Shown here in pieces: positions 19,263 to 45,790 of a DNA stretch of 64,000 nucleotides. Under the pieces are notes generated by a model that saw only the letters and a program-made list of their open reading frames with translations, did no database searches and was not told where the DNA came from. Positions within the stretch are counted from its first letter, which is position 1; each line of letters opens with the position of its first letter. The DNA is from Amphiscolops sp. MND2022 (lineage: Eukaryota), in contig OZ076412.1 of the NCBI GenBank assembly GCA_964187785.1, positions 46,934,001-46,998,000 on the forward strand, given 5' to 3'. Made by a program: the position numbers and the translations under genes.

Positions 19263-19273
19263 TGGTGACAGGA
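19263..19273 (+). promoter_or_regulatory. Primer-binding site TGGTGACAGGA (tRNA-Leu-like, unverified)
   Basis: Immediately follows the LTR-terminal CA. The same 11-mer is present in element B at 59209-59199. Confidence 0.8.
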
Positions 19274-20361
19274 CCTATCAAGAACATCCTGAGACAAAGC
19301 TCTACTAACTCTAACACAACAAATACAATTGGACCACACGCAACAACCCTTCTCGAACATCCTGAAACATCAGACCCTGTCAGCCAAATTGCATTAGCAA
19401 TTGAAAATCTGGCACGAAAAAACCCAGAACCCTCACTCTATCACCCGAAAAACACACTCACTTTTAACGGTAAATTAGAGAAAAATGAAAAGTTCGAGTA
19501 CTTTGAAGACCTTTTTCATACCACGCTCAGGATGCAACCTCATCTCACTGAAGAGATGAAAATAAACCATTTTCACGCCCATCTCAGAGGACTGGCGTTA
19601 AAAACCTTCAAAAACATACAACGCACACCTACCACAACACTTGAAGACATCTTGGTAGTATTCCGCAGAAAGTATGTCAAGCCTGAATCTAGTGCTTCAG
19701 CCAAACATAGATTCAACAGGCTTATGTTCCAACCCGAAAACCAGAAGCTGCCCGACTTTCTCGAAGATCTACAAGAGAGTGCTGAAAATGCCTTTGGGGA
19801 AGCAGCGCCACAGATGATCGAAAGTCTCATATACGCAAAAATGCCTCCCCATCTAAAGAAATTAATCAACCAAGCGTACCTTGAGAATGGTACCTACGAC
19901 CAAATTGTACGACACTTAGAACGCGAAATGGAACTCAATGGACTCGAAGCAGATGAGCCATTAGTCAAAACACAAATGACAGCTGTAAAACAGCAAACCA
20001 ACACATAAAACACTAAAAGTTCGACACAAAACACAAAATCTAAAACCAAAACTCCCAACACAGTTCCCAACAACACTCTACAAAACAACCAATGTCGTTA
20101 TTGCAAAGAAGAAGGTCACATGGCGAAGGAATGCCCAAAACTTGCAAAACGGCAAAAACTCGATAATTATCCAGATGCACCACGATGCTCCCATTGTAAC
20201 ACTACAGGACATGAAAAACCCAACTGTTACTTAGGAGCTAAAATGGAAAATCGTCCACCCAAATGGACACTGACAGAAAACCAACAAAAACTCATTGACG
20301 AGTATAAAAAATCAAACAAACCCATCAACCCACGAAACACGAAACCTTCAACATCGAAGGA

Positions 20362-20368
20362 TTTAAAC
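20362..20368 (+). promoter_or_regulatory. Candidate -1 ribosomal frameshift slippery heptamer T TTA AAC at the gag/pol junction
   Basis: X XXY YYZ pattern in the gag frame just before the gag stop. The -1 frame is open and continuous with pol ORF 20437. Confidence 0.75.
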
Positions 20369-23300
20369 TAATACAGCCACGCCTTCAAGCAGAAACACCA
20401 CAAAAACAACACTCTACTGATGACTGGCAGCATCAGTTGAGTCCCAAACCAACAAAAATTACAGTCTTTGATCATAAAACCAACAAAACCGACTCTCACA
20501 CTACAGACACATCAACTACAACTCCAGATACTCAAACGGAGGATCTATATGACCTACTCAAGGATGCTCCTGATAACTACATCCTACGACAAATCTTTGA
20601 ACCTGCAACCGAAACAGAAACACAAAATCAACACCCTAACACCTCACAACCTCAAGAAACACAAACTGATCACCTAAACACACAATCCACATCGACAACT
20701 CAAACCGACGAAGACGTCACCTCAGAATTAACCAAAACTCTCTTTTGTGCATCACCTGGAAAACAACCCCTCCTTGATAATGATGTTTTCAATCATCTAA
20801 CTACAGATGAAGGCAATAACATCATGTATTTGAACCTTTCTACAAACCTTACACTCAAAAAGAAACGTCATATGTACTATTTCCCAATGGATTTCGAAAA
20901 ACTAACTCTGGATGGACTCATAGATACAGGCGCCTTAACAAGCGCGATTTCAGAAGCTGATCTTAATAAAATCAAACGCTTATCAAACGAAGCAATCAAA
21001 GACACTGGCCCAGCACCTAACTTCCAAATTATGGTGGCGAACGGTCAGCTTGAACGCCCCATTGGAACCGTCCTCCTCGAAGTCGAGGTAGCAGATTTCC
21101 AATTTCAAGAGAATTTCATAGTAATGAAGACACTACCAAACCCACTTATTGGCCTGTGCTTCTTACAAAGACACAACGCTCTTTTCGATATTCGACAAGG
21201 AATCATTACATTCCCATACTTGTCAATGCAATTGCGTCCCGAACACACAACAAACACCCGAACAGCAACACCCTTGCTGACTGAAACCACTTATACCCTA
21301 CAACCCGGAGAAACTCTTGCAATTTCCAGCAAAATGCCACACTTGATAGACCACAATGCAACAGGAATTGTTACTCCGTCATCACACATGGAGGAACATG
21401 AGAGCATTTTCATTACCTCATCATTAAGCACAGTCAACAACAACGCAGTGGGTTACCAAGTGATCAATTTCTCGGATATGCCTTACACCCTTCCAGTGGA
21501 CACACACATGGCAGATTTCCGAGTCCTCACACCAGAACAAATCAAACACATCAAACCAGTTGATCCATCAACCCTCACCTTCATGATGCATCAACATATG
21601 GAGAACACCGACCTTTACCTCAACCAACTGATGAAAACAAACCATTCATCTGATGAACAAGAAATGTATTGGTTTCCGACACCTGAACAACCTGGGGATC
21701 CAGAAACATACACACCCATACAAAAACGAATTTACGACGAACTACTGGAGCTCAAACAACTTGAACAATTCAACCCAAACGACAACGCAGAATCTAGAAA
21801 GCAATTCCTTGACCATTTCGACTGGACCGATACTACCCTAAGCCCATTCGAAAAACAGCACATTGAAGACATCCCGGTGCAATACCATGATATCTTTGCC
21901 AGACATCGGTTTGATATTGGCACCAATAGAGAATTTAAGGTTAAATTGACTCCTAATGATGATAGGCCTGCCTACAGTCAAAGTCTCCCTACGCCAATCA
22001 ACCTCAAAGACGACATAACTGTTGAACTAGCCCTTCTCCATCGTTATGGTATCATCACAACATTACCATTCTCTAAGTACGCAAGCCCTTTTTTTGCCCA
22101 GAGAAAACCAAATGGACGCCTTCGTCTCCTGGTAGATCTGCGCAAAATCAACAACCTCATCACCCAAGATTACGTAAACAACAACCATCCAGTTAGCACA
22201 TTGTCAGATGCTGCACAGCACATGACCGGAAAGAAGCTTTTCTGCAAACTCGACTGCTCACAAGCATACCATTGTTTGCAGATGGCCGACTATCAGTCAA
22301 TACAAATGCTAGCTTTCAACTTCGCAAGCCGAACCTTTGCATACAGACGTCTTGCTCAAGGTCTTCGTCGTTCATTATCCGCCTTCTCTTCCTTCATGAG
22401 AGAATATCTAGACAAGGCCATTAAGGCTGACCAGTGTGCACAATACGTTGATGACATTGGCATAGCTGCGAACGATTCAACACAACTCTGCATCAACATC
22501 AAAACAGTCTTTGAATGCATCAGAAATGCAGGACTTAAGCTTACAATGGCTAAATGCCATTTTGGTGTCAAACAGGTCGACTTTTTGGGATGAACAATAA
22601 CCCCACAAGGAGTCTCACCACAAACCGAGAAGTCAAACTATTTCTTCAAAAACTCAAATTCCCGAAATCCAAAAAAGCCCTTCAAAGGTATATTGGGTTT
22701 CTTAACTACTACAGAAACTACATCCCTCGTTTATCAGAAAAACTGTCGCCTTTCTTCAAACTACTCAAAGAAACATCACAATTTTGCATACCAAACACCG
22801 TTTTGGACACATTTAAAGAACTAAACCAACAACTGGAGGAATCATGCAACCTTGCTCTCAAACAACCACTACAGAACAAACAACTCATTCTTATGACAGA
22901 CGCAAGTTTCACAGCAGCCGGTTATGCCATCATGATTGAAGATGACCCTAACCAGAAACTCCAATCCAGAAGAAAAACCTATGCCCCAATTGCGTTTGGG
23001 TCAAAAACGTTCAACCCAACACAACTCAAAATGTCAATTTACGCGAAAGAATTCTTAGCAATTTATTTCGCGTTTTTCGAATTTGAACACCTAATGTGGG
23101 GAAGCATCTTTCCTGTTATAGTCTTCACGGACAACCGTTCAGTAACACGCTTCTTTCAAACAAAAATAATACCACCACCCCTCTGGAACGCCTGTGACTA
23201 TGTACTGCAATATAACTTCGTCATAGCACACGTTGCAGGAGCTATGAACACAGCTGCTGATTTCCTTTCAAGAGCGGAAGTAAACCCGAATGAAAAACTC

Positions 23301-25354
23301 GAAATGAACATCCGAAATGATGTTGCAACCAAAGCAATCGAAGTCAATATTCAGTCCACAGGAGTTGCTGAGGAAGAAACTCTTTACATCCTTCCGGACG
23401 AATCCCCCACAGAACAGCAAATGTGGGAAGAGAAAAACACAATACGCTCTATGGCAAGAACGGAAACCCACAATGATCCAGAAAACGAAGTGTCAGACCT
23501 CTAAACTTTCCACAAACCCACAGCGGGCACAATCAACTACCGCGAAGGACACTTCAAAGACAACGCCAAAATCCGCTTGGAACAAAACAATGACCAAGTA
23601 TTACGCAATCTTCGATATAAACTTGAAGGTGAACCTTACGACGAAACAGAGTTTACGCAAGATTATCGCTACAAACACTATTTACAAAATATCACCAGAA
23701 TTGAAATTAAACAAGATGTCTTAACACGAAGATACTACAATGATACTGGGATGATATCACATTACCAGATACTCTTACCAAAACAACTACTAGATGAATT
23801 CCTTCATGCACTCCATGGACATAACGCAAATCATCCTGGAAAAACAAAGATGATCCAAGAAGCCCGGCAGAAGTATTACTATCCCTGCTTAGCCAAATAC
23901 ATTCGAACTTGGGTCACAAAATGCCAAATGTGTATACAAAATAAACGCATCAACAATGACCTCCTGAAAACAGAACTACTTACTTGCCCAGACTGGGATT
24001 TGGGCCCAGAAGACATTCTACAAATGGACATTCTCCCTAATCTCCCGACAAGCGGAGGTTATGACAACATCATCACAGCAATAGACGTGTTCTCACGCTA
24101 TTTGTTTGCCTATCCAGTCACCAGGATCACCGCCCCAGCAGTAGCAAAAGTCATTATGGATATTTTGTGCAAACACACATACCTACCCACAACAATCATT
24201 ACAGATATGGGCACTCAATTCAACTCACAGGTTACCAAAGAAGTTGCAGCAGTCCTAAACATAGAACTCAAACACGCAACGACAAAACATGCCCAATTAA
24301 TTGACTATTAGAACGTACCCATGCATCGGTTAAAGCGCATCTTAAAGCAGCCACTGGAGAATTCAGAAACAATTGGCATAAGTTTCTACCATTGGCAGTC
24401 TTGAACCATAATACAACCTACCATGCAACACTTGGTTGCAAACCTACACGGGTCTTCCATGGAAGAATCCCGCACAATATACTCGATTTCAAGTTGGGGT
24501 ACAATCCAAACCCTAGATTTCAACCCCAAACTGAGGTAGCAGAAGAGGTACAAAGACGGATTGCATTACTTCATGACCAAACAAAGAAAAACATTATGCA
24601 ATCCTACCTTAAATATAAAGCATACTACGACAGGAAAGCGGAAGCAGCACCCCTTACAACAGGGGATTATTGCTTTATCTTGAATCCGAAAGCAGACACA
24701 CAGGCAACCAAAATCCCCTTCAGAGATTTCCGCTGGGTTGGCCCTTACAAAGTCGAAAAAGTCCTACCGAATAACAATTACATTGTTCGTCGTTTGGGCA
24801 CAAATAAAACCCAATTGCTTCATCGTATACGACTACGTATATACATTCCACAAGCACCTCTAGCTGACAATTTTGTCAGAGAGTCTGAATGGCAAAAAGA
24901 AGATACACTTATCGCTCGAGATGACTTATATGCCCACACCTGGGACACAAATTTAGGATCGAGCCCATTTGACACTGACCATGAAATTAATGATCAGCAA
25001 GAAGACATGGTAGAATATGAGCCTACTTCTCAACCTGGAATAAACCGCCCTCCCACCCCCGATAATTCTCAAAACAGTGGGGGGACCCCAGCAGAACAAC
25101 CTGCTGTGACCGACAAAGAACCCCAGATAATTGATAAAATCATTACAAGAAACGAAAATCAAGAGCCCATACCAGAAATTTCAAGAAATCCAGAAACTTC
25201 CCAAGAAACCTCAACCCAAAAGTCACCAAAAACTCCCGAAAATAACCCAGAACATGATGCACTAGAAACACTAAAAACAGTTAACACGAGAGGTGAAAAG
25301 TACAACTTACGCCCGAACCCTAACCCTAACTACTCAGACTCATACAGATACTAA
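20362..25354 (+). pseudogene. pol: Element A pol (PR-RT-RH-IN, GPY motif), disrupted
   Basis: PR LIDTGALTS; RT YVDDIGI; RH TDASFTAAGY and TDNRSV; integrase HHCC plus DILPNL / DMGTQF / ERTH; WVGPYKV. Frameshift near 22590 and stops at 23502 and 24309. Confidence 0.95.
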
Positions 25355-25629
25355 AAAAGACAAAATCAAGAGACTCAAAGACTTTAACTAAACACAGTCT
25401 CCGTTTATCTTTTGCTCTCACATCTTTTCTCTTCACTTTTTCTTTCCCAATCAGTTACTTCAGTAACTGTTTTGAGAATTGATTTACTGGAATCAACAAA
25501 ACTAACTAAACCAAATCAGGTGTAACCAACCTGAAGCAAAGCAAACAAAGTATACAAAGAACAAAGCAACAAATAAATGGATTACAAGCAACACCGCAAT
25601 CTATAGAAACAGTAATAACTTGACGTCTC

Positions 25630-28600
25630 TCATTTACCACCGGGAGATGGTCTCTTCTTTATAGAAAGCTTCTTCGCAGATTTAGTTTGGTCAGGGGGTA
25701 GAAACGGAACCTCGCTGACGAAGCGCGGAACAGCCAAAGTAGCAGTAGCCAATTGCAGAGTCTGATCGAAACCTCTTGATGACCCACCGGAAGGCCCAAC
25801 CGGGATTGGCCCTGGAACAGCAAACTTCGAACTGGGTAGAGGAGTTTTGGGCGATTTACTAGTAGAAGAAGTGACCCGATGAGTTGGCGAAGAAGAAGTT
25901 GAACCAGAAGGTTTAGGATCAACATCCAGAGGAGTCCATGCCCTTTCTTCATCAGTAACCGTGCAGGTGAAACGGGACTCAAATTTATTCTGTAGTCGTA
26001 GTCGGCGAGATGAACAACAGGAACTAACGTCCCAAACAGAATAATCGAGATTTTCCAACAAACTCCTCCCTTTTCCGAGCAAGGAAAAAATAGGGGCAAC
26101 AGTTCTAGGATTGGAAAATAACACCAAGACGTTGGGAATGCCGACCAGAGAAGACTGAACACTCCTAACTGAAGAAGTGAAATCACAGTTGTCAGAAGCC
26201 AAGTCAGGTAATGCAACGGTGAAAACAGGTGGAATGCAAATAGAGCTAGAAATTCCAAGACAACACAACTTGAATACAGAGAATAAATTGGTGCGACATT
26301 GGAGCTCATAATAACCGGACATGAAGGTAACCCAGTCTGTATCGTACTGTACTTCGCAAGACCTGAACTTCTCAACAAAAGATCAGTACTCACTCAAGAT
26401 GAGTGGCTTGATGGAACTTGATATCCAGTCCCGCTGTATGAGGAAATCGCACAATTGGTCTGATTCTTCTTCGTAGTCCTCCTCTCGCCCATGTAATATC
26501 ACAGCTTCGTCGAAAACAGACATTCCTCGGATAAGCTTCGACTTGCGAATGCTGTGTTTCAGAAGCAAAGTACATAGACTTTTATAGAAACACAGTGCTT
26601 GTTCGACGAAATGGGTCGGTAGATCACTCTTATTAACTAAGTCGGCAAAGTCTTTACTACGAAGAAAATCGGTGACGCTTTTGAAAGGAAGATCAGAAGA
26701 CAAGTCAATAGACAAGAATCGGTCCCAGTCAGAGATGTCCCCCAAGAAAGAATCTGGCAAGATAGTCTGGAGCTGACAATACACAAATGTGGCGTAGGAA
26801 CTGTAGAGTCGGAAGCCGTCTGAGGCGATCCCAGTGACTCCTTTGAAAGCCGATTGGTCTGAAGCATTTTCAGATTAAGAAAAGGAACCAGACATTAAAA
26901 GAATGGAAAAAATAGAAAAGGCTAACAATGAAGAAGCACATTTCGTACTAGAAACAACTTGGCGGGATAAGTCTTGTCTTTAAATATCGTCTCATCCAAA
27001 CTTTTTGGCTGAAACATCAAAGATTGGCCATTAAGGCCATTAAACCAAGTCAGAACAACGATATCTGGAATTTCGGAAACGAATATTACCTCTTTCATGT
27101 GGTATTTGAAAGCCTTGATCCGGTCAGTGAGACGGAGATGAGCAACCACATGATGCCAATTCTGGTACAGTTGTCCAAGAAGAATAGCGCACTTGTCATA
27201 ACTGTATTCGAAGCTACAGAGCGCCTAAAAGAACAAATTCATGCCTGTGAGAACTAATAGCATTGGAAATGAACTTAAGACATGACGCATTATGATGTCT
27301 TCCAAATACAGTATAGGATGCTGAACAGCATGCAGCATAAGATATGCGGACTATGCGGATTAACCGTGAAACCAGCATAATTCAAGAAAAACAGTATAAA
27401 AGAATAAATCACGCTGTTTCAAGAGAAAACAGCATAGAAGAAAAGTTCATGCGATTTTCAGGAGAAAACAGCATAGAAGAAAAGTTCATGCGATTTTCAG
27501 GAGAAAACAGCATAGAAGGAAAGTTCATGCAACTTTCAGGAGAAAACAGCATAGAAGAATAGTTCATGCGATTTTCAAAAGAAAACAGCATAGAAGATAA
27601 GTTCATGCGGTTTTCAGAAGAAAACAGCACAAAGAAGTATCCAAGCGGTCTCAGTAAAAGAGTCAGCATAGAAGAAAAGTATATATGCGGTTTTTGGAAG
27701 AAAACAGCATAAAGGAATACTCATGCGGTTTTCGAAAGAAAACTACATAAAGAAGCACCCATGCAGTTCCCGTAATGGAATGGCATAGAAGATGTGATTA
27801 TGCGGTTTTCGGAAAAGGTGGCATAAGAAAATACCCACACAAGCGGAATAAAAACAGTATGAAGATAAAATCTATGCAGTTTGCAGAAAACAATGGATAA
27901 TGAAATGAAGAAACTATGGTCAAGATCCAACAAAGTATGCGGTAATATGCGGTTTTCTCAAGACGTCTTAGGAGTGTTGATTACGGTTAGGAAGGGACAT
28001 AATAATAGTTAAACAATAGAAATGCTTACTTCTCGAAGCTCCCGCAAGTTGTTGAGCCAAGCTGATCCCAAAGCTGTCCGAAGTTTCATCAAAAGAAATT
28101 GTAAAACGCTGTGTATGTCATAGCGGTCCAGGATTTTGACACATGGGCCCGCGAGCATTTTGTATAAATCTTCATAGCCGAAAGTAGCAACGACGCAAAT
28201 GGGTGTGGATTGGTTCAGCTCAGTAGTCAATGTGTTACTGACCCGTCCATCAAACCCGAGCAGAGAAAACACAGTGGGTGGATTGCTTGTAACAGCAAGG
28301 AAAGAAGAGATGGCATCGAGGACTTTTGGAGCTGTTTGGAGACTGTTGGGAAACTCGGAAAGGCAGATACTATTGTACACATTCCCGGACCAGAAGGCCA
28401 AATTAACCTGAGCAACTTTAGTCGAGGAAATGAATTGAAGGGAACACAAGCCTCGCTGACCAATAGATGTGACAGAATATCGTAGTAACTCGTGAAACAT
28501 GTAGACGAGTATTCCCTGTGAAACATACGAATTAAATATATGATAGATAGATGCCCAACTCAGTTAGATAACAAAAGATACTTACAAAAACACGTTCCTG

Positions 28601-30260
28601 TCTCCAGTCGTACTGCGGGAATCTAGTGGGCCCCTGTGCCTCGACATTCAAATTGGATAAGAGTGAAGTTAATAGGTCCAACTCTCCGCCAGACTGGAGT
28701 CCTAACAAGAGGAGCCTCATCTGTGAGCATGCGACTGATGAGGGATAAAGAATTTCTGTGTCTTTTGGCAACTCTCTCTGTCCTGGCAGCAGGTGACATT
28801 CGCCCAAAGTTGGAGTGATTGGAAACGTCTGCTCCGCTTTTTCCCGTGCTTCGTCTAGAGCAACTCCAGTTATCTCTCGCTCATTTTTGTCATAGAGTGG
28901 AAGTCCTGGTGTTTCTAATCTAATTCGATGCTCTCGAACCCAGTGGGCATCAGTACGGTAGTGCGATAAAATTTCGAGCGATCCTTTCGTCTTTAGAGAC
29001 AACTCTACTTGACACACTCTACAGCGCCACTTGTGAGGATTCTCGTTCGGGTCAGCTGGACGTGTGACGAAGAATTTGAACACGGGATGCTTTTTATACA
29101 TCTGAGCAGAAAGCTGCATTCGGGGTCTTGGTCTTTTGCTAACCACAACTTGTTCATCGGATGTTGTTTGGACCGGGTCAGAAGTTTCGGTGTTGTATGA
29201 ACGCCTGAGAGAGCGTCTTTTCCCCGGAGATGTAATTGGAGTCCGTTCTGGGGCACTACGTCGTTGATTTGCCCGTGTGGATTCACCCCCAGAAGGGCCC
29301 GTAGTGGGTTCGGATCTTTCAACAGCGTGCGCAGACATTGATTGCTCAAGCTTTGTACTGACAAGAGTTTCAAGTCTCTGCTCCAGTGCCTCTAAGTCGG
29401 AACATGTGACGAAATTGCCAAATTGTGTTACTGGAAGCGATTGAGCATTGGTAGCTGGTCCGCGGCTTTCTTGCTCGTTGGGGGCTCTCACTGCAAGTTG
29501 ACCTAAGTAACGTGTGGTAGGAGATGTTCGAGAATGGACCCCTTCCAACATGGGAGTAGTCGCCCGTGAGGAACATTCATCTGGTAGAGACTTTTTCTCA
29601 CCTGCAGGAGCGATTGAATTGAGGCAATCGGGTTGCTCTCCAGTCACATCAAGAACGAGTTGAAGATTAGAATCAACGGAAGTGGCAAGGAAACTAACAG
29701 GTTCTTTGGGACTTGTCATGCTGTGGTCAAACGAGTGTTTAATCCCGTCTTGGTCGAGAGTTACATTAACAGTTTCACAGAAAGAACGCTCTGGTTCAGG
29801 AGTAGATTGATGGAGGGGAACAACAGACGTCAAAACCGTCAATTCATTGGAAGATGGTTGTCTTTGGTGAAAGGATTGAGAATCGGTATGAGCTAGAACA
29901 CATAAAGAATTGGAAATAAAGATGACATAGGTCGATGAAAATCAACCTGAAAACGGATATTATCCGACTAAATTGTGGGAAACTGATCACTTCCTACTTT
30001 AAAATCAGAGTTAACTCGAAAAAGTGTTCACAACTTGAAACAGAAAATCCGAAAATGGACCTGTGGAGAGCGGATGTGAAAATGAAATTTGTTCAGCGGC
30101 GGAAACAGGAAGTCTTCAAGCGACACTTGTGAAAGTCCAATGTGAAACCAAATACCGAGATATTTTCATCCATTAATTAAAGGCTGAAAATATACAAACC
30201 TTGTGTTGGCAAATCGGTTCCCTCCTTGTAGCCAGACATCGTTTCACCCAGTGGATCCAT
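25630..30260 (-). CDS. Element A antisense cargo gene, six exons (30260-30200, 29892-28586, 28515-28030, 27224-27090, 27008-26927, 26858-25630), 1,099 codons; zinc-finger, hAT-transposase-like protein; one internal TGA at 26383-26385
   Basis: All five introns are GT-AG. Exon lengths sum to 3,300 nt in frame. Intron positions and phases match the element B gene. Finger CRVC-x16-H-x5-H. Confidence 0.85.
27340..27950. repeat. 39-bp tandem array (GAAAACAGCATAGAAGAAAAGTTCATGCGATTTTCAGGA) inside cargo intron 3
   Basis: About 5-6 well-conserved units from 27424, plus degenerate flanking units, each with a GCAT...ATGC inverted core. Confidence 0.9.
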
Positions 30261-30574
30261 AAGACAAACTGCGAAAGGCTGTAGTCGATTGCAAAACAAA
30301 GAGTCCGTGAGAATAGCAGTGTTGGAAGAATGAAAACCAAGTGAAGATAATTCAGGATAACGAATCAGGAAAGCGGAGTTGGATAATTCGAACGAGAAAT
30401 GTGAGAAACTAAAGATGACGGAACTACAAATGACTTGAAGACTCTGAAAAATGGTAAAAACTATGAAGACTGAGAATTAATAATGTAGATTGAAATTATC
30501 AAGAAATCAAAATTATCAAAGCAACTGGAAATAGAAGGCGTGGCAGTTAACGAGAAGGCAATAACGCAAATGGA

Positions 30575-30620
30575 TGACGTCAATAATGGCGTTTTCAGTG
30601 TATCTCAAATCTGATTGGTC
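30575..30620. promoter_or_regulatory. CRE-like palindrome TGACGTCA (30575-30582) and CCAAT box (GACCAATCAG on minus, 30620-30611) upstream of the cargo gene
   Basis: The same GACCAATCAG lies at a similar distance (about 330-350 bp) from the cargo ATG in element B. Confidence 0.5.
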
Positions 30621-31492
30621 GAGAGCAAGTACTCAGTTTCGCCATTTCTGCCATAATGACTAAATTGGAGGAATCCATACCATATAAGGAAACTGACAGA
30701 CTTTGCGTATTAACACGCAACACACCGCTGCAGTGAAAGTGCACTATGCTGTTCTGCATTAGAAACCGCATAATGGTCCAGCGCTATCGATCGTGAACAA
30801 CAATCTGTCATAGTATAGAGAAGAAAATGTAACAAGGCAGCATAAAGGGATTATGCGGGATTAAAAGTGAAACTGCATAAAGTGTTCATGCGAAAAATAT
30901 CAAAGACAGCATGGTGAAGTAATAATGGCAATATGAGAAATTATGATGCATTATGATGTTTTCTGTAAGCAGTTTATGATGTGAATCATTATTAACACTG
31001 CTGATTTGAATATTACACATTTACTAGTGAAAGAATGAAATTCCACACTTTTGAGAAAGATGATTCATACAACAAAGTGTGAAATCTTCACATGATGAAT
31101 CTGAATGGACTACAACCATAATGTATTTTGATGATGAGTAATTAAAATTCAGTTACCCTTTATGGGGTAGCTACCGGCGATATATGAAAGAAACTCTGGA
31201 AATCAATAGTTATTGATGATCAATTAAAGAAACTCGATGATGCTAGATTTCCATAAATTATTTGATAATTACCCAAAAACCCCGGGAAAAGGGTAACGCG
31301 AAAGTGTGTTGGAGCAATTTATATAAAACCCATAAACCTACAAAAATCTAGAAAACCTCACCATTTTGGTCCTAAATTTTCAGAAAACAGTTGATCTTCG
31401 CCTTACAACTTCCTAATCTTGTAGTAATTCTTGATTCAAAATTGTATAACAATTTGAACCGTTTATACCATTTGATTTCAAAAAACATAAAA

Positions 31493-32439
31493 ATGGACAG
31501 CACACCTGTGAGAAGAAACAATAACACGAGGGACCCAATGTTAATTGACACTGCACTGGACCTAATAAATATCTCCAGTAGCTCTGAGGAAGGATTTACG
31601 GTGGAACGTTTCTCCTTGCCCGAACTAGAAGATAGGTTCAGAGTTGCACCATCATCAATCACGAACATGCCAACTGCTTTCATGGGGTCGGCAGAGGCCT
31701 CATTATTCGTGACCAATTCAATTGATGCCAGGTCAACAGGATGTATAGACACAAGAGGAACGTCCATTGAAACTGAGCTGATGGATCTATTGAACGACAT
31801 ACCGGATAGTTCACCCACAACGTTCATCGATACCTCCGACGAAGAAATGAACCCCTTCCCAGAGGCTAATTTCGCGAATGTACAAAGGAACGCGTATGGT
31901 CGCCCTACTCAGAGAGTGTGCCCTATGCCCAGACAACAACAAGAGACACAACCTCCTAATGCGAACCTACCAACTATACCCAGCCGAACAAGCGCTTTTA
32001 CAGCGTATACAGCACCACAGCAGAGAACAACTGACCCGAATCCTCGTCCTACACAACAAGCACAGTATTTGCCGATGCCCATCCCGTTCTACCCTATTGC
32101 GTGGAACAATGTGGGATATGGGACATTGGGTCATAATATGCAACACCACCATCAAGCAACGTTCCCGCTCATAACGGAACCTTGTTGCAAATGAACCCTC
32201 CAGTCATGCCCGAAGTCGCAGGTTATTGCCCAGGTTGCACTAAAACCTATGACCAAATTGCAGTAGAGACATTGACCCACTACGTTGCTTGGTCCGAGTA
32301 TCCTGATGAAACAATCCGCGACAGAAACGTCAGATCAAGGGCTTTTGTGGACGGATTTGGAGCTGCGTTGATCTGCTTCAAAAATGCTGGACTGTCGCCG
32401 GGCTTCCCCTGCGAGATGTCCGAAGTGCAGCATCGATGA
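31493..32439 (+). pseudogene. Element A ORF3 (about 315 aa, unknown function), one frameshift near 32185, stop inside the 3' LTR
   Basis: ORFs 31391-32194 and 32182-32439 are together homologous to element B ORF3. Shared motifs: ISS.S.E.FTVE, N.YGRP, CxxC..TYDQIA, DRNVRSRAF, FKNAGL. Confidence 0.8.
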
Positions 32440-34158
32440 TCAGTTCAACTTGCTCCTTCCTACCGCCTGAGACCCGAAGATCCGAATCAAATCGTCATCA
32501 GTGGTACAGGCTTCAAAAACATTTAAAGTTACCACAAACTGAGATAATTATTTTGAATGTTTGTTCTTGTTGCTAAATTTTTAGCATTCGTTTGTGTTAT
32601 AGTGTTCGTTAATGTTAAATTGGATGCCCTATTGCTTTCATTGATTTAATTGTAACAACGGTCTGACCGTTGGCAAATCGAAAGAAAAAGAAAAACTTTG
32701 ACCAAATAAATTAGTCTCTAGTGATAATGTTACTAGCTGACCCAAGCCAAGCCTTTATTTTTACTCCCACTTTACCTTATAAGAGTGTACTGTAGTTTGA
32801 TATAGCTTTCAAAATAATAGAGCATTTGTAGCAAGACTATGTAGGAAGCTTTCATAATCTGCATGATGAATTATCCATGAAACAGCATACTGTGCTCATA
32901 CTTCTTTTCATTAAGAGTTCATACTGCTTTGTGCAGTTCTTACTAAGCCACATATGCGGCTTTAGCTAAAAAACAGTATGATGACTACATACGTGCGGAT
33001 AGTTAGTTATGCTACTTACCGCATTATGCGGAAGTATTGTAAAAACATCATGATGATTAACCCCGTGTGCACGTTTATACTCCTCACCGCATTATGCGGA
33101 AATATCTCAAAACAGCATGAAGTTTAATTCATAATTAACATAATGAACAGCACCGATAAATTATACTGCATTATGCGGTTCCCATAAAACAGTATATGTG
33201 CGGATATGCTGACAGAACGTCATAATCCGCATATTGCTTCTACAGTAATTTACTGATGTAGCAGTTCTATATTTAGACCTTCTAGGGATATGACGTTATG
33301 AAGTATTTTTAATCCCTGACCCTAGAAACATGACGTGATGATGATTTGTATAAAAATGATTGTCATGTTACTAAAAATACCAACCAATAGAATCATTCGA
33401 AGCGAGTCCCTAAGAAATCATTATTCCCCACATTCATTCGAAAAAAATCTCACGCAGAACACAGTCACTCAATTTCACAAACTACCCACAGTTCTCAAAC
33501 TTGGCAGTTTTCTTCCTTTGTAAAGATAACTTCCACGATTTCATTTCACCAAAATATCTTTGTAATTCAAAGATTTTCACACTCAACACTGTTTTCATCA
33601 TGGGAAATAAAAGAAATAGACGTTCAAGAAGGATAGAATCTCAGTCATCGGACAGAGAAGAGAACACTTCAGAAACAAGCTTCACTCAAGGTAATGCGAC
33701 TTTAGTTGACGTTTCTGAAAATGTTAATAACATTTTTGACAGGAACTTAGGTAGCGAACTGACAGAACCTTCGCAAATCAGCAATGAAATAGAAGTAATA
33801 TCCCAGAGATTATTTGAACAGAACAGTAACAAGATGACACAAATCGAACAGCAACTGAATAGTAAATTCGAAGAGATACTTAGAGAAATTAGAACAAATA
33901 GAGAAAGCAAGTTGGCAAATGATGAAGAGGATGCCGAGAACAATAGGCCAGGTCCATCTAACTCGAAAAATAGAAGTCTCAGGAACAATCACGCATCAAA
34001 TACAACATTAGACAAAGACAAAAATCAGGATGATTGGTTTTATCCATCTGAAATGGGTGAATTAAGACAACCATACATGCCAGTCGGAACTGCTAATGAA
34101 ACACTAAACGAAACCATCATTATAAACGAAAACAGACAGGAGAATGCCGATCATCACA
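32393..34158 (+). repeat. 3' LTR of element A (about 1.77 kb, TG...CA)
   Basis: Direct repeat of 17523-19262. Contains the ORF3 stop and an open 186-codon Gag N-terminal ORF (ATG at 33600). Confidence 0.95.
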
Positions 34159-34668: not shown

Positions 34669-36151
34669 TGTGATAATCCTCCACTTCAGAGTCTTCATTT
34701 GAAACTATTGTTTCATCTAATTCGAATCTATTTTGACAAAATGGTTTTGCTGGATTCCTTAGTTCATGCATATTTGATGCTCTGATAGGGTGACTATCTT
34801 CATTTTCAGAGTCTGAGTTATCATTTACTGATGCGTGAACTCCTATAGACCTATCTCTGGATCCCGATGGTTGAGTGTTTTGTGTTTCATTTGTGTTCAA
34901 CCTCGGGTTTGTTACTGTCGATAAGCGTTTGTTAGGTTTTATCTCTCAGAATCGCTTCTAATTTGTTATCCATTTCTTCTCTTTTCAATTCTATCATTAC
35001 TCTTTTGTTCCATTATTTGGGTCGAAACTTGTATCTCATTGCTAACTTGGCTGGGTTCATTCAACATGTTCTCAGAGTTTTTTTCACCTAAATTACTTTG
35101 AATAGCTGTATTATTATTAGTTAAGGTCACATTACCTGAAATTGGTGTCTCTGTCTGATTCCTCTCTATCTCCCACTCTGGGGATGGAGTTTCTAGCCTT
35201 CTAGATCGTCTATTTCTTTTATTTCCTATCTTTTCTCAGTTGAAAACGAATTGCAGTTATTGGGGAAGAATTTGCATTGATCCTTTTCTTTGGCAAAACC
35301 AAATTGGAAATGGAAAAAGATTGGGGAAGTGAAAATTTACAGAAGAGAATTGTTGATTTTAAAGTGACTGCACTTTAGTAGGGTTGAAAAAGTTGTGTGT
35401 TTTCAAGTTACCCTAGCTGTCTATAACAATCATGACATCCTCCCTTTTTATGGACATCACCCTCTGGGAACGTATAAATAGAATTACATCACAATTACTT
35501 CAATCTAATTATAGTACAAAGCCCCTAGAGGAATGACAATCAAATGCCTAACAATAAGGTCTAGGAAACCCTAGAAGAGAGTATGAAATTACTTAAGAAT
35601 ATTATTTGCATGACTAATCAACGCTAAAATTTACTACAGCATCAATTTGGAGAACAATACTGCTAAAACCGCATGATGACTAGTATACATTATACATCAA
35701 AACGCATGTTACCGCATGCAAGCGCTTATGCGGAAATACCGCATTCTGACGTATATACATTTCCACTCGAAACGTATGTTGACGCATAAACGTACTATCT
35801 TGAAATGTATGTTACCGCACAATGATCAAGACATATTGCCACAGTGTTTCCAAATGAGATTGTGAGTCACATATTACATAAATCTAAACTCCATGACTCA
35901 TCAACTTGAATAACGAACATGAAAAACTAAATCCCAATACAATCTAATATGTATTAAATCATCTAAAAGAACAAAATCAACAGAACTAACAACTTTACCC
36001 AAAATAGCATTTATACATGACATCAATAAAACAAATGCAAAACAAACATAACATATCATAAAACCAGTTTCAAAGTTTTACATTATTTCTAGTCCTCATT
36101 CACCTTTTCAAAGTTGCACTCCGGATCCCATGCAGGTGCTGGGCTGCAACA
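34669..36151 (-). repeat. 3' LTR of element B (about 1.48 kb)
   Basis: Direct repeat of 59210-60674. Confidence 0.95.
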
Positions 36152-36557
36152 GTCCCGCATTTTTAAAGGTGAATAGGGCTGCTTCGAATCCATTTATGAA
36201 AGCACGGGAGCGTACATTTCGATCGCTCACTGTTTCGGCTTCGTACGATGTAACAAGGAGGTACTCACCTAATATTTCAAGTGCTATTTGATCATAGGTT
36301 TTACCGCACCAATCGCAGAAACCTGCGATGTTAGGCATAACAGTTGGAGACAATTGGTAAACATTCCTTTCCTCTGCTGGTAAGAGCAATACATTTGTAC
36401 TGTGTGCCATATGTACTACGTAGGCCTGTTGTAAAAATGGTGGTGCTTGGGGGTCGTTGTGCACTGCCACAATGTTGGGTATGACCGATGGAATTTGTAT
36501 CATCAATGGTACTGGATTTGCTGATCGATTTGGATTCGCAAGGTGTGAGTTGGTAAT
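36108..36557 (-). pseudogene. Element B ORF3, C-terminal half (downstream of the BEL insertion)
   Basis: GFCDWCGKTYDQIALE...DRNVRSRAFINGFEAALFTFKNAGL aligns with element A GYCPGCTKTYDQIAVE...DRNVRSRAFVDGFGAALICFKNAGL. Confidence 0.85.
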
Positions 36558-37507
36558 TGTAACGGCTGCTTGCCCTGATCCTGCGCTGAGGCTTGACAAG
36601 CTTTACGCCGCCCTGATCCGTTGCTTAGTGCTGTGGACTGTCACTAAACAAATCCTGGTTTTCTTGTTTAAAGGACTGTATCTTTTGGCTTGATGGGTCC
36701 GATGTGACCCGTGGAATCTCCTGCGATTCCGCTTTGTACTGAATTGGATCCGATGTGATCCGTAACACACTTCCTTTCCTGTATCTTCACGCGCTCCGGC
36801 TCTCCAACTATGAGAGTAGCTACTTAGTCGCTCTGACTCTAGCGAAAAGTTGTGAAGATTGAGAAGTTGATTAATTAGTCTCGCGGTCCTGAGACCCAAC
36901 TTGACTATAGCTATTCAGTGGCGAAAATCTCTATCTAATAATGGTATAAATGTGGTTTACAATTCTACAGTAAATATAAGCAAATATTAGTTGAAATATG
37001 TTGTATAAATAAATGACATTTATTGCAAAAATGAAGTTATTGGCTAAGTAAACAACTATGTGGTGGTTTTGGCATGTTGGTTAGGTGGTCTAGAAAGTAT
37101 GTTTACACAATGTAAATATGATAAATGTCAACGGAGTTACATTTCCTTCAAGGTCAAATGAGAAAATAACATAATAATTAATACATCAAATTTGGGTAAT
37201 TCATGGGGTCCGACCTAGGTCACTTTGGGTGTTAATAGCTCGGAACCCAGGGGAGATACGGGGTTGGTTGTTCCTAGTGAAAAGTTAGGATAGCACCACC
37301 ACTATATGTGTGGCGAGTTTCAAGATGATTGATGAAGTGGTTCATCGGGACGGGGGGGTGGCCCAATTTGTCTCAGGCTCATTTCTCCTGAAACTCGTAA
37401 TTTTATAACTAAATTTTTGATAGAGTTTTCTAAGTGTTTTGAGTTACAAGTTTCATCAGTCACGTTCAAAGTTGCGTTTCTGATCTCGCAATTGACTGGC
37501 GTCAACA
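36558..37507 (-). repeat. 3' LTR of element C (950 bp)
   Basis: Direct repeat of 45810-46766. Confidence 0.95.
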
Positions 37508-40500
37508 TTGCCGGCCCTGTTTTTCTCCCGAAAAACACTTTCATAGAACAGGGGTGCTAATTTCACTACCGGTCTTTTGAGTTTTCCATCTTCCGTTTTC
37601 ACCAGCGCAGATCTCACTCGCCCATCGCTTCCATGATAGACTTCCAACACTCTACCCATCTTGTAGTGTGCTCTTTTCACATTCTCATCTACTATCCAAA
37701 CCAAATCAGTGACTTCAAAGTGTCTAACTTCTTCTTTATTCCATTTAGATCTCTCATTCCATTGGGGTAAATATTCTCTATTCCATCTGCTCCAGATCAT
37801 ATCTGCATATGCCTGTGATACTCTGAATACTCTTCTAAGATCTGTGTATCGCTGAGCGTCAGGAATAAATGAGGTTGCTGGACTCGCGCGTCCTAGCAGG
37901 AAGTGGTTTGGAGTCAAAGCTTCCAAATCTTCAGGATCATCACTGACACTAGTCAGAGGTCTCGAATTCAATATCTGCTCGACCAGGCACGTTGTTGTGA
38001 ATAACACATCATCTGTCAGTGTTCTGTTTCCTACAATTGCCATCATAGCTTTCTTGCAGCTTCTGACCATTCGCTCCCAAACACCTCCAAAATGCGGAGC
38101 TCCTGGGGGGTTGAACTTCCATTTTATTTGCTTTTGAGCCAAAGACTGCCTAATGTCTGATTGATTCCAAGCTTCTATCCATTCTCGCTTTTCTCTCGCT
38201 GCACCCACAAAACTTGTTCCATTATCACTTATGAGATTCGGTTTTCCTCTTCTTGCGATGAATCTCGTAATTGCAGCAAGACATGCGTCGGCTTCCAGGC
38301 TGGGCACAACTTCAACATGCACAGCTCTTGTTGTCAAACATGTGAATAGACAACACCATCGTTTCATTGATTTCCTCATGAATCTCACTTCGAATGGTCC
38401 AAAATAGTCTACTCCAGTGTTGGCAAATGGGAAAACTCTTTCTTCCAATCTTTCTTTAGGTAGGTCTGCCATGAAAGGTTGAACTCCTCCAACTTGTTGC
38501 TTTCTACACTTAACACACTTTAGCTTCACATTTCTAAGCGCGTTTCGGAGTCCAATTATCCAATAATTCTGCTGCAAAATACTGCGAACACACTCTGTTC
38601 CTTCATGAGCATCTTCAATCAATTTCCTCACTATTGGATGCTTCGCAGATAGCAAAAGTGGATGTTTCATTTCATAACTCGCATCAGCAAGACGTAGTCG
38701 TCCTTTTAATTGCATTAGGTTCTGATCGTCCATAAATGGTGACAGTTTGTTCAAGTGATCAGATGCAGCCATGGGTTTACCTACGGCCAATGCTTGATAC
38801 GTTGGACCAAAGCTTTCCATCTGGCTCTTCCTCAGAAACAGTCGGATCACTTGCTTCATTTCTTCTGTTACTACCACTTTTCCTTTGCCTTTTGATTTGA
38901 ACCGAAGGCAATAGGCGAAGATGCGGGTCATTCGTCTGAAAGAACCGAACTTCTCCCAATCAATGTTCTTTTCTTCTGGCACGACTTCAAAGACTTGCTC
39001 TATGTCTTCTGTTTTCTGCTGAAACAACTGTGGTGAAGTTTGTGGCCAAGCATCTTCTTTCTCTCGAAGCCATACCGGCCCTGTGAACCACTCGCTCTTT
39101 TCTAATTCATGGACGGATTTTCCTCTTGTTCCGATGTCGGCAGGGTTTAAGGTTCCTTCGACATGTCGCCACTGATCAATGGTTGAACTGTCAAGGATTT
39201 CGGCGACCCTGTTCGCCACAAACACCGGTTGTTTCTTATCAGCTTCATGCAACCATTGCAAAACAGTTGTCGAGTCCGTCCAAAAGAAAGTTCGTTCAAT
39301 TTGAATGTCGTGTTCGTCTACGATCAGTTGTTTTAATCGGGTTCCATACATAGCTGCTTGTAGCTCTGGTCGGGGAATTGATTGTTGCTTCATTGGCGCT
39401 ACTCGGCATTTCCCTACCACATAGGCAAGCTCTCCAGTTTGTTGATCTCGAAAGTAGGCAACTATGCACATGGCGTCCAGGGATGCATCGGCGAAAATAT
39501 GCAAGTCCACTACTTCAGCAATTTTCGACAAATACTTTCTTTTGATAGCCATTTCATTCATGTGACTCAACTCCGATGCCCAATCCTTGATTTCTACCTC
39601 GTCCTCTGGAGATAACTCTTCGTCCCACGATTGCCCATGTTTCTTCCAAAATGCGGAGCTCCTGGGGGGTTGAACTTCCATTTTATTTGCTTTTGAGCCA
39701 AAGACTGCTCAATGTCTGATTGATTCCAAGCTTCTATCCATTCTCGCATTTCTCTCGCTGCACCCACAAAATTTGTTCCATTATCACTTAGAATGATATT
39801 CGGTTTTTCTCTTCTTGCGATGAATCTCGTAATTGCAGCAAGACATGCGTCGGCTTCCAGGCTGGGCACAACTTCAACATGCCCAGCACTTGTTGTCAAA
39901 CATGTGAATAGACAACACCATCGTTTCATTGATTTCCTCATGAATCTCACTTCGAATGGTCCAAAATAGTCTACTCCAGTGTTGGCAAATGGGAAAACTC
40001 TTTCTTCCAATCTTTCTTTATGTAGGTCTGCCATGAAAGGTTGAACTCCTCCGACTTGTTGCTTTCTACACTTAACACACTTTAGCTTCACATTTCTAAG
40101 CGCGTTTCGGAGTCCAATTATCCAATAATTCTGCTGTAAAACACTGCGAACATACTCTGTTCCTTCGTGGTAGTTATTTTCATGCGCATCTTCAATCAAT
40201 TTCTTCACTATTGGATGCTTCGCAGATAGCAAAATTGGATGTTTCATTTCATAACTCGCATCAGCAAGACGTAGTCGTCCTTTTAATCGCATTAGGTTCT
40301 GATCGTCCATAAATGGTGACAGTTTGTTCAAGTGATCAGATGCAGCCATGTGTTTACCTGCGGCCAATGCTTGATACGTTGGACCAAAGCTTTCTATCTG
40401 GCTCTTCCTCAGTAACAGTCGGATCACTTGCTGCATTTCTTCTGTTACTACCACTTTTCTTTTGCCTTTTGATTTGAACCGAAGGCAATAGGCGAAGATG

Positions 40501-43500
40501 CGGGTCATTCGTCTGAAAGAACCGAACTTCTCCCAATCAATGTTCTTTTCTTCTGGCACGACTTCACAGACTTGCTCTATGTCTTCTGTTTTCTGCTGAA
40601 ACAACTGTGGTGAAGTTTGTGGCCAAGCATCTTCTTTCTCTCGAAGCCATGCCGGCCCTGAGAACCACTCGCTCTTTTCTAATTCATGGACGGATTTTCC
40701 TCTTGTTCCGATGTCGGCAGGGTTTAAGGTTCCTTCGACATGTCGCCACTGATCAATGGTTGAACTGTCAAGGATTTCGGCGACCCTGTTCGCCACAAAC
40801 ACCGGTTGTTTCTTATCAGCTCCATGCAACCATTGCAAAACAGTTGTCGAGTCCGTCCAAAAGAAAGTTCGTTCAATTTGAATGTCGTGTTTGTCTACGA
40901 TCAGTTGTTTTAATCGGGTTCCATACATAGCTGCTTGTAGCTCTAGTCGGGGAATTGATTGTTGCTTCATTGGCGCTACTCGGCATTTCCCTACCACATA
41001 GGCAAGCTCTCCAGTTTGTTGATCTCGAAAGTAGGCAACTATGCACATGGCGTCCAGGGATGCATCGGCGAAAATATGCAAGTCCACTACTTCAGCATTT
41101 TTCGACATATACTTCCTTTTGATAGCCATTTCATTCATGTGACTCAACTCCGATGCCCAATCCTTGAATTCTACCTCGTCCTCTGGAGATAACTCGTCGT
41201 CCCACGATTGCCCAGGTTTCTTCCAAATTCCTTTGAGCAGCAATCGCATTCTCACTGTGAAGGGGGAAAACAGTCCCAACGGGTCAAACACAGAGTATAC
41301 GTGAGATAGAACAATTCTCTGAGTGATCTTGGCAGGCACCTCCTTTCCCGTACCGCGGCAAATCTCAAGACTGTCTGACTACACATTCCATTGAAGTCCT
41401 AAGATTGAGGGTGCCAAGGGTTCAGCTTCGAATGTTTTGCTTAGCGCGACTGATCTATCTTCCGGGGATATTTCTTCCATCACTTTCTCGGAGTTGCAAA
41501 TCCATTTGGTTAGTTGGAATCCACGATCCGCTAAGGATTTTCGGAAGCACTTGTACACTTCCTCAGCTTCTTCCCTGAAGCTACTGACTTCACAAAATCG
41601 TCCATATAGAAGTTTCTGTTGATCAACTTTTCAACCATCCCATTGTCATCTCTGCTGTCTCGTCTGACTTGTTGCAAAGCGTAGTTGACACATGTTGGCG
41701 AGCTCTTAGCTGCGAAAATGTGTCTTCCATATTCATACACAGAGATAGGGTCAGTGTGGTTTTCTCTCCACAAAAATCTGAGCACTTTGCAATTAGCAGG
41801 GGGTACTTTCACTTGGAGAAACATCGCTTCGACATCTGCTGACAAGGCAATTTGTTTCTCCCTGAATCTGAAGATAATTCCTATCAGCGATTGTAGGAGG
41901 TCTGGACCGGCCATCAAGTTATCATTCAGCGAAACACCTCCGAACTTTGAGGCAGCGTTGCACACTCGTCTCACTTTGTCCGGCTCGTTCGGGTTCAGCA
42001 CTGGAAGATGCGGAACGTACCACTGAAGGTCTGTTTTGTGTTTTCAAGTTGTTCTTCATCCAGAATTGTCACAAACCCCTTTTGTACGTCCACATCAATT
42101 GTCTCTTTGTAGCGTTGTTTCAAGTTCTCATCCTTTTCCAGTCGGCGCTCGAGAGACTTCAATTGAGTTACTGCCGAACTGTAATTGTTTGGCAAATGCG
42201 GCTTTGCATGTTTCCAAAGTAGCCCAACCTCGTATCTCTCTCCATTGAAATTTGTGGTTGCCTTGAGCATTTCGAGGGCTCGCTCGTCTTCCTTGGACCT
42301 TCCGGATACGCTGCAGTTTGAAGCTTACGATTCCATGCTCCACCAAGACTTCACTTGACACGCTAACGGGTCCACTTCTGCTGCAACTAGACTTTCAGTT
42401 GCGAGCTTTGCTGTCTCTTGTTGGATAATGGTCCACTGAGCATCCATCCCAGCTTCGTTCGCACTGCCCAAGGCTTGGCGTTTCCACACTTTCTGTATTC
42501 GATTGCCCTATGCAAGTGGTAGCAATGTTGGCCTAAGATAACTTTGACATCTTTCAGGTTGATGGTTGAGTCTTTCAAAACTGACAGGTGAGGATATGTT
42601 TCTTTCAATTTCTTGAGGTCGTACGTTCGATTTCCTGCATTTACGTGGGGATGACTATAGGCCATGATATCTTCATTGACCTTTCCGTCTTGATCTCCAA
42701 TCTTGACTCGAAGTCGTTTACTTTTAATATCTGACGTACCATGAATCCCTGCAACATTCAAATCCACTGGCTGTCCCGTCAGATTTAGCGCTTTTATCAG
42801 GCTCTCGTCCACAAAGGACAGGCTTGCTCCAGAGTCACACAAAGCGAACGTTTTCACATTTTTGCTCCCACTCCCTACCGTTACTGGAATGACGGGAAGC
42901 ACTCCACTGCTTCTCATAGAGGACAGATTTGAAACCTCCTCAACATTTTCAACATTTTTCTTTTGTTCCACGTTCTTGTATGGTCTGTGCAGCAATCGGT
43001 GATGAGGTTTTCCGCAACCATTGACGTCACAGAGTCTACCAGAGCAATTTCGCATCTGATGTGCGTCTGACAAGCATTTGAAGCACAGCTTCAGTTCTTT
43101 CGCCTTTTGTCCTCATTCTTCGACGTTCATCTTCTTGAACTTCCCATATTTCCATATGGGATGTTTGCCATCTTTCAGCGCACACTCTCGCTGGTATTTC
43201 GAGTTGTCACTGGCTGTGTTTGTTGTTGATGTGGCAAACGTGGAGCCTTTGGCCTTTTTCTTGTAGTTCGACTTCGCGCGATCAGCATTCGGGTTTGAAG
43301 ACAAAAGCAATTCATCTTGAACATCTGCTATATCATTGAGCCATTCACTGAACACAGCGAGCCCAAGTTGATACAGATTCATTTGCTTGACATAAGTGAG
43401 CCACTTTGTTTTCATGTCCAGTGTTAACTTCCTTGTGGCGCTGCCCAGAACTCCTTCTGAGTTTAGGTCTCCCACGTAGTTGAATTGTATCAAAATAATC

Positions 43501-45403: not shown

Positions 45404-45441
45404 TTTTCTCTTCTTGGTTGAACTCAGTTCCCAAAGTCACA

Positions 45442-45681: not shown

Positions 45682-45790
45682 AAATCAGCAACTTCAAGAT
45701 CCAGACACTTGTTCTTCTTGGGCAATCTTCTCAGTTGTCCACCAACGAGTCGTCTTCGTCTTCTAGTCCGGGTCGTCCACCAACGAGTTG

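Follow-up and report, generated by a model that had tools for sequence, protein, structure and literature searches.

ORF3, a frame at the 3' end of a 16.6-kb retrotransposon in a 64,000-nucleotide stretch of the genome of Amphiscolops sp. (the window), is a regulatory accessory gene that is found throughout a clade of giant Ty3/Gypsy elements and is inherited together with them. The disordered part of its product is kept free of lysine by selection. The motifs of the protein suggest that it may be a disordered adaptor for SUMO-marked chromatin, on which it would dock to promote expression of the element, a reading that we place ahead of its rivals while giving it somewhat less than an even chance.

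The host elements and their copies of ORF3

Element A (17523..34157, plus strand) is an LTR retrotransposon with LTRs of about 1.75 kb each (17523-19258 and 32393-34157), which are 98.2% identical over ungapped columns, and it is flanked by a 5-bp target duplication, AGTGA. Pfam matches to gag (weak), protease, RVT_1, RNase H and rve follow each other in the order of Ty3/Gypsy elements, that is, gag and then protease, reverse transcriptase, RNase H and integrase, between LTRs and with a target-site duplication. Element B (60674-34669, minus strand) adjoins element A; its pol DNA is about 72% identical to that of A, and it likewise has LTRs (the 3' LTR at 36151-34669) and 5-bp target duplications. 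ORF3 lies at the 3' end of element A, and its parts in both elements are as follows:

31493..32194, plus strand: N-terminal part of ORF3 of element A, 233 aa with a premature stop; acidic, predicted to be disordered, lysine-free
31562..31591, plus strand: SIM-like motif LINISSSSEE with two CK2-type sites
31766..31798, plus strand: amphipathic, LxxLL-like helix IETELMDLLND, conserved; the sole notable predicted helix N-terminal to the domain
31823..31846, plus strand: second acidic-hydrophobic motif FIDTSDEE, conserved, non-canonical as a SIM
31889..31906, plus strand: NxYGRP motif, conserved
32191..32439, plus strand: C-terminal domain of ORF3 of element A, with a predicted CxxC knuckle and two helices, the second Arg-spaced, and a third, mostly conserved Cys
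32377..32394, plus strand: FKNAGL codons overlapping the plus-strand primer position, which has no classic purine run, and the first two bases, TG, of the 3' LTR
46760..47380, minus strand: N-terminal part of ORF3 of element B, frameshifted, with IIDISSESGEE at about 47321-47289
36108..36554, minus strand: C-terminal part of ORF3 of element B, with the CxxC domain and a stop within the 3' LTR of B
36555..46759, minus strand: BEL/Pao element nested in ORF3 of element B

An earlier note on this DNA had described 31493..32439 as one open reading frame. The parts that it named (LINISSSSEE, FIDTSDEE, a P/Q/N-rich linker and the CxxC domain) are all present in that interval; the single frame is not. 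The N-terminal part of A runs for 233 aa up to a stop codon at 32192-32194, diverging from the reading of an open copy at about residue 218, and the CxxC domain (32191-32439) lies in a different frame. In element B, ORF3 is frameshifted and interrupted by the 10-kb BEL/Pao insertion (36555-46759). Because the frame of A is broken and that of B is both frameshifted and split, the two copies in the window are dead. A programmed frameshift was considered and rejected, as most sister copies are open. The note had also placed the stop of ORF3 inside the 3' LTR of both elements, and this holds: the stop codon of A is at 32437-32439 and its 3' LTR starts at 32393, so that the final 47 nt of ORF3 lie within the LTR, and the stop codon of B is at 36110-36108, within its 3' LTR.

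Some further features of these elements deserve mention. The gag frame opens inside the LTR (18558-19300 and 33600-34163) and runs across the primer-binding site TGGTGACAGG, so both LTRs hold a gag start of about 190 codons. Directly ahead of element A are two neighbouring near-perfect palindromes, with arms of 63 and 102 nt (16563-16919). Within the nested BEL/Pao element, 1.56 kb are duplicated (38086-39650 and 39645-41227), and a 24-nt unit is repeated in tandem at 45429-45682. Elements of the BEL/Pao kind are essentially restricted to animals, in line with an animal host.

Conservation, selection and inheritance of ORF3

The genome searched, of 1.07 Gb, contains many young, near-identical copies of ORF3 with open frames. 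First-look candidates numbered 3,070 for the domain of A and 4,579 for that of B, and the best 150 of each were scored. Of the top 30 matches to the A domain, 23 lie in stop-free frames of 315-351 aa; the top 30 for the B domain likewise include 23, in frames of 348-380 aa. Subfamily representatives, six of the A type and 12 of the B type, were used to measure selection. The proportion of synonymous differences (pS) among them is 0.72-0.80, which is near saturation and makes a dS correction impossible where it applies. Nonsynonymous differences (pN) amount to 0.05 in the C-terminal domain of A-type and 0.12 of B-type proteins, to 0.23 and 0.32 in the N-terminal block, and to 0.33 and 0.47 in the linker. 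For the N-terminal block, the linker and the domain alike, pN is below pS in all 15 A-type and all 66 B-type subfamily pairs. ORF3 is under strong purifying selection in these other copies, and neutral evolution, which the earlier note had named as an outcome that would count against it, does not describe the gene.

The gene travels with its element. Integrase, an antisense gene (see below) and ORF3 occur in the same order in ten of ten long loci, and the identity of the ORF3 domain tracks that of the integrase (Spearman 0.82; 36 pairs from nine loci, with one locus left out in which the integrase segment was not found). At the LTR edge, the DNA itself is constrained: synonymous divergence falls to 0.35-0.50, and all 18 copies examined have identical bases, GGA-CTG-T, around the TG of the LTR. 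The end of the FKNAGL sequence is therefore held in part by DNA function. FKNAGL had been put forward as a conserved protein motif; it is indeed present, with the reservation that its final GL owes part of its conservation to this invariant DNA. The plus-strand primer position (32377-32392) is A-rich and ends in GGAC rather than being a purine run, and is kept in this form across families.

Homologues of ORF3 in the databases are, among the matches listed (the best 150 of 286 and the best 120 of 483), all unnamed ENA/JGI proteins without Pfam domains. The distant relatives, which retain the domain residues C, C, Y, ET, R, F, G and G, are probably proteins of other hosts: P0057 and P0040 have matches of only about 40-48% in the host genome, and for P0243, P0248 and P0298 no host-genome match was obtained at E ≤ 1e-25, 1e-40 and 1e-60 among the best candidates, which were the ones scored. 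In metagenome contigs, 419 pattern matches were found, none of which was confirmed. In two of the distant relatives, P0257 and P0258, the domain continues into an unrelated sequence of about 200 aa that both have in common. This extension is possibly a read-through into an LTR-encoded frame of another family; that of P0258 did not match the LTR-encoded gag start of the present element.

Anatomy of the protein and searches for relatives

Alignment, together with a domain model of moderate confidence, depicts ORF3 as a long, acidic and predictedly disordered region with short motifs, followed by a small domain with a Cys knuckle and two helices. The model of the full-length protein, built on a shallow alignment of 21 sequences, is mostly of low confidence (mean pLDDT 48.9), with a helix at residues 91-100 and two helices at 253-298. 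When modelled alone, the domain forms a CxxC knuckle with helices at 20-34 and 42-64 (pLDDT 72, pTM 0.56). The net charge over the first 130 residues is -15 to -23 in 15 of 15 proteins, and the C-terminal domain is about neutral (-4 to +1). Conserved blocks comprise the SIM-like motif, FxVE..RFR, MxAFxG, the amphipathic LxxLL-like helix, which all 23 copies have, the second acidic motif and NxYGRP. Several Arg residues on the second helix of the domain are also conserved. Each protein has three to six Cys residues, of which only the CxxC pair and one further Cys are conserved. No clear basic nuclear-localisation signal is present in family A.

The conclusion that ORF3 is not an envelope protein, already drawn in the earlier note, is supported here. 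By hydropathy, none of 15 proteins has a signal peptide (best value in the first 40 residues at most 0.97) or a membrane segment or anchor (best 19-residue value 0.71-1.50), three to six Cys residues per protein do not make a Cys-rich ectodomain, and 21 family members gave no match to a Pfam env family; nor was a match to a host family obtained. More generally, profile and structure searches with the C-terminal domain gave no acceptable match to any family or structure. Pfam scans of pieces of the window, of 21 family members and of eight distant relatives returned nothing above the cut-off for ORF3, and a tblastn search of phage sequences gave no match. In the ESM Atlas, the full protein had no usable match and the domain had one, at 0.75; a BFVD fold search with the low-confidence full model gave none. 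In further fold searches, the PDB yielded nothing at E ≤ 0.001, and the best match by Z score (Z 6.0, rmsd 2.8, 52 residues aligned) stood among generic helix pairs. Two cofilin-like chains that came up in a domain-profile search of the PDB (E 0.03 and 0.14) were rejected, as they lack the first Cys of the CxxC motif. At the level of the predicted model, the fold searches thus identify neither a new fold nor a known one.

A lysine desert kept by selection

The lysine desert of ORF3 is an observation that goes beyond the first reading of this DNA. The region before the CxxC motif, of about 270 residues, contains 14 Lys in 6,266 residues over 23 copies, where about 278 would be expected from base composition, and 299 Arg; in 14 of the 23 copies it contains no Lys at all. 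The shortage does not simply follow from a base-poor, acidic character, since the linker has three Lys and 176 Arg. Among the 97 private substitutions in three sets of young copies, ten create a Lys codon. Lysine is thus easy to reach by mutation and is removed by selection in active lineages. The longest lysine-free run is at least 150 residues in 22 of 23 copies (range 148-333); by one of the criteria cited for lysine deserts, a continuous lysine-free stretch of at least 150 residues (PMC13696103), ORF3 is such a protein. Among further database proteins, some of them fragments, 17 of 18 have at most two Lys ahead of the CxxC motif. For comparison, the integrase contains 5.7-6.6% Lys, and its disordered tail has two to six Lys per 120 residues. 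The disordered part of the antisense protein is also poor in Lys in three of seven loci (one to three Lys per 230-254 aa).

Lysine deserts are reported to be enriched among proteins of the ubiquitin system (PMC10169902, PMC13696103), and in the SUMO-targeted ligase Slx5 the desert, of 398 aa, protects the protein by limiting its self-ubiquitylation (PMC13696103). According to these papers, viral proteins may avoid lysine merely to escape degradation. The desert of ORF3 points toward the ubiquitin/SUMO system, and it would do so independently of the SIM-like motif.

A candidate SUMO-interacting motif

SUMO-interacting motifs consist of a hydrophobic core of the V/I-V/I-x-V/I type with an adjacent tract of Ser and acidic residues. 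A SUMO gene of the host, L119, was recognised by eye. Other host genes (L103:955-2487, L105:949-2466 and L107), present in several copies on contig C11, encode two or three ubiquitin-like domains joined to a C-terminal domain in which a PARP-type ADP-ribosyltransferase can be discerned by eye (YHGT..GxGxY). The earlier note had pointed to two SIM-like motifs in ORF3. As a sequence pattern, the first of these stands up well. Of 23 copies, 22 have its core (two hydrophobic residues, D or N, and another hydrophobic residue) and 16 the strict pattern of core plus acidic residues, which seven lack; the strict pattern has one match in 83 control frames (26,702 residues). At least one CK2-type S/T-x-x-D/E site falls within a 12-residue window in 20 of the 23 copies. 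Thirteen of 27 cluster representatives, several of which are truncated or decayed, have the SIM-like pattern, against 0.12 expected from shuffled sequences. As the copies share ancestry, these counts measure conservation and not independent origins. Similar motifs, LITLSSDSEE in P0260 and IYLSSDESE in P0324, occur in relatives, among them P0260 and the family of P0324, of which the domain is only about 42-53% identical and the N-termini are otherwise hard to align. Residues 1-40 have a pLDDT of about 41-50, which would place the motif in disorder, the shallow alignment of 21 sequences making this weak evidence. The second motif did not fare as well: FIDTSDEE lacks the fourth hydrophobic residue, is replaced by FIGSS or FVSSE in other subfamilies and is non-canonical as a SIM. 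The first motif looks like a phospho-SIM and is a candidate SUMO-docking site; CK2-regulated SIMs have been described in PML, Daxx and PIAS1 (PMC4276917).

The region upstream of ORF3 and the antisense gene

Three features upstream of ORF3 in element A bear on its expression:

31359..31393, plus strand: conserved YY1-like and initiator-like sequences in non-coding DNA, some 135 and 107 nt ahead of the ATG and forming a candidate internal promoter for ORF3
30535..30619, no strand assigned: conserved sequences resembling a GC box and a CCAAT box, in the DNA that separates the antisense gene from ORF3 (in element B at 48557 and 48480)
25633..29941, minus strand: antisense gene, apparently spliced, coding for a BED/C2H2-like zinc motif; head-to-head with ORF3

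Of 21 copies, 16 have a CACCAT..GGTC block about 90-150 nt before the ATG and 15 an initiator-like CAG(T/C)(T/A)G block at about 65-107 nt, counts that are descriptive, as the patterns were derived from the same sequences. The spacing of the upstream motifs is fixed across families of which the synonymous sites are saturated. Splicing to ORF3 is another possible route to its expression, though by eye no conserved splice acceptor was evident ahead of the gene in 19 upstream sequences. ORF3 is probably expressed from an internal promoter directly upstream, head-to-head with the antisense gene, and this promoter is possibly a two-way one that both genes share.

Between pol and ORF3 lies the antisense gene, which is conserved and has about 1,000 codons (25633-29941, minus strand, in A; 49134-53046, plus strand, in B; also in loci L109-L118). 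A GT(A/G)AGT donor-like site closes its first frame in seven of seven loci, and its last frame starts at a pyrimidine-rich AG in eight of eight. Its introns would survive reverse transcription. The protein combines a BED/C2H2-like motif, CxxC..H..H, with a basic tail at its C-terminus; it had no Pfam match above the cut-off, and profile searches of the PDB with two exons returned nothing. Clusters of ATGCGG/CCGCAT are present at 18083-18253, 27378-27814, 32953-33240, 48198-48281 and 51732-51842. They are located in the LTRs, within an antisense-gene intron and some 0.6-1 kb ahead of ORF3, and not in gag-pol or ORF3: eight sites occur in the 5' LTR of A, against 0.5 expected, and none in the 6.1 kb of gag-pol. 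These clusters resemble the motif arrays of VANDAL transposons.

Possible functions of ORF3

In the reading that we favour, a CK2-phosphorylated SIM would dock ORF3 on repressor complexes that are marked with SUMO, at element copies under silencing. Silenced copies are the most plausible site of action because SUMO is a scaffold in Piwi-guided transposon silencing in flies, as described in PMC8490990. There, the amphipathic helix and the C-terminal domain may recruit a host co-factor or the zinc-finger protein of the element; silencing would be weakened and the LTR expressed. The most likely reason for avoiding lysine would be that ORF3 works beside SUMO and ubiquitin ligases, the desert sparing it from tagging and destruction. 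Against the docking of ORF3 on SUMO stands the fact that there is a single good SIM, the second motif being non-canonical. Neither Pfam nor fold searches revealed a RING or other ligase domain in ORF3; it is thus not a SUMO-targeted ubiquitin ligase.

Acidic-hydrophobic motifs like those of ORF3 also typify activation domains. ORF3 could accordingly be read as a transactivator or co-activator of the Tas/Tat kind, of which the acidic N-terminal half and the LxxLL-like helix form the activation domain and in which the SIM-like motif is incidental or has a tuning role; the protein would be brought to the LTR by its C-terminal domain or by the antisense zinc-finger protein. The strongly negative charge of the first 130 residues in all 15 proteins and the helix found in all 23 copies suit such a role, and the ATGCGG clusters in LTRs, intron and intergenic DNA suggest a regulatory circuit encoded by the element. 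The 3' position and the candidate internal promoter recall Bel1/Tas of the foamy viruses (PMC517496). The near-neutral C-terminal domain (-4 to +1) is, however, unlike a DNA-binding domain, and an activation domain alone leaves unexplained why lysine is avoided in a linker that is not acidic and keeps its arginines. We regard this transactivator reading as rather unlikely, the first of the alternatives all the same; it and docking on SUMO are not mutually exclusive.

The two genes may also form an anti-silencing cassette with a shared internal promoter, in which the antisense zinc-finger protein finds the element through the ATGCGG arrays and ORF3, as a lysine-free SIM adaptor, dismantles or out-competes SUMO-dependent repression. 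As a whole, this scheme is unlikely, a little more so than transactivation.

An element of 16 kb makes a long RNA that has to be exported, and ORF3 might serve as an exporter of unspliced genomic RNA in the manner of Rev or CERV, its Cys knuckle and Arg-spaced helix binding RNA while the disordered part recruits export factors. Several Arg residues on the second helix are conserved, and the Cer1 element encodes the accessory protein CERV, which is nuclear and has a Cys-rich loop (PMC10309623). The domain of ORF3, though, is not basic; the protein has no sequence in common with Gag, its model shows none of the H, M and G domains of CERV, and export would explain neither the SIM-like motif nor the lysine desert. 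We consider this improbable.

Slightly less probable still is that ORF3 restrains its own element, the SIM recruiting SUMO-dependent co-repressors so as to limit activity to favourable times. The same motifs would be used, and the SIM-bearing proteins PML and Daxx are repressive (PMC4276917), but the 3,070 and 4,579 first-look candidates and the young open copies fit a gene that helps the element to spread better, suggestive as such numbers are at most. As small a chance is given to a cytoplasmic degradation adaptor resembling Vif, Vpx or Nef that brings a host restriction factor into contact with a ubiquitin ligase and lacks lysine so as to escape destruction itself: the desert, the Cys motif and the short linear motifs would suit it, and ligase receptors are a known class of lysine-desert proteins (PMC10665810), but no ligase-binding box was recognised by eye in the alignments, and the SIM-like motif points to the nucleus.

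Comparison with known systems

Extra genes after pol, in sense or antisense orientation and kept in most copies, are known from retrotransposons of plants and rotifers (PMC7264820), and gene23 of Grande has its own promoter and a nuclear product (PMC7264820, PMC5408684). The lineage of ORF3 has such post-pol genes in common with these elements; it differs from them in pairing a sense gene head-to-head with a spliced antisense gene. The ORF3s of rotifers are env, GDSL esterase or DEDDy exonuclease genes, none of which the present ORF3 matches. The word SUMO is absent from the plant review of extra retrotransposon genes.

CERV of Cer1 in Caenorhabditis elegans is, like ORF3, a non-env regulatory protein with a Cys-rich motif that is encoded by an animal Gypsy element. 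It is phospho-regulated and is described as having no homologues outside its own clade (PMC10309623). CERV is spliced from gag exons and has 517 aa and three folded domains (H, M and G), whereas ORF3 forms a gene by itself at the 3' end, with an ATG of its own and a product that is predicted to be mostly disordered, with one domain of about 65 aa. Bel1/Tas lies 3' as ORF3 does, and its activation region is acidic. Unlike Tas, which binds directly to DNA elements, ORF3 has a neutral domain, and no link in sequence or fold was found; the regulatory gene of the foamy viruses is tied to an internal promoter (PMC517496).

With Slx5, RNF4 and the viral protein ICP0, ORF3 shares a SIM-like motif within a long disordered lysine desert; unlike them, it has no RING, only three of its Cys residues being conserved. 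One convincing SIM stands beside the non-canonical second motif. Nef is myristoylated at Gly2, and its frame, like that of ORF3, ends inside the 3' LTR. The analogy with nef that had been drawn for ORF3 extends to this position and no further: the overlap with the LTR is only 47 nt, there is no homology, and residue 2 is Gly in one of 23 copies, so that a conserved myristoylation site is lacking. The VANC proteins of Arabidopsis VANDAL elements are transposon-encoded anti-silencing factors, and the short motifs concerned have accumulated in non-coding parts of the elements (PMC5735166, PMC10398659). VANDALs are plant DNA transposons, and motif binding as in VANC fits the antisense zinc-finger gene better than ORF3; homology was checked by Pfam scans only.

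No description of such an element or protein was found in literature searches or in passages of a survey of errantiviruses (PMC13524379), a review of giant transposons (PMC6431247) and a paper on an acoel genome (PMC9911081); repeat libraries such as Repbase may hold the element. Extra ORFs after pol in plants and rotifers, and CERV as a regulator in an animal Gypsy element, are already known. Judged by its sequence, ORF3 rates as a new protein family within a known class of roles, with an unusual signature of a SIM-like motif combined with a lysine desert.

LTR retrotransposons reach thousands of copies in animals in spite of silencing by SUMO and piRNAs; how they do so is an open question, and few counter-measures encoded by transposons are known from animals. 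The ORF3 family, which has no match in the libraries searched, bears two independent signs in its sequence of work at the SUMO/ubiquitin interface and is a small, directly testable candidate. Its conserved lysine desert, together with the ease with which lysine arises in young copies, offers a clean natural test of selection against this residue. If real, the two-gene cassette would give a transposon in an animal the means to counter SUMO-based silencing, with a build of the ICP0 type without the ligase domain.
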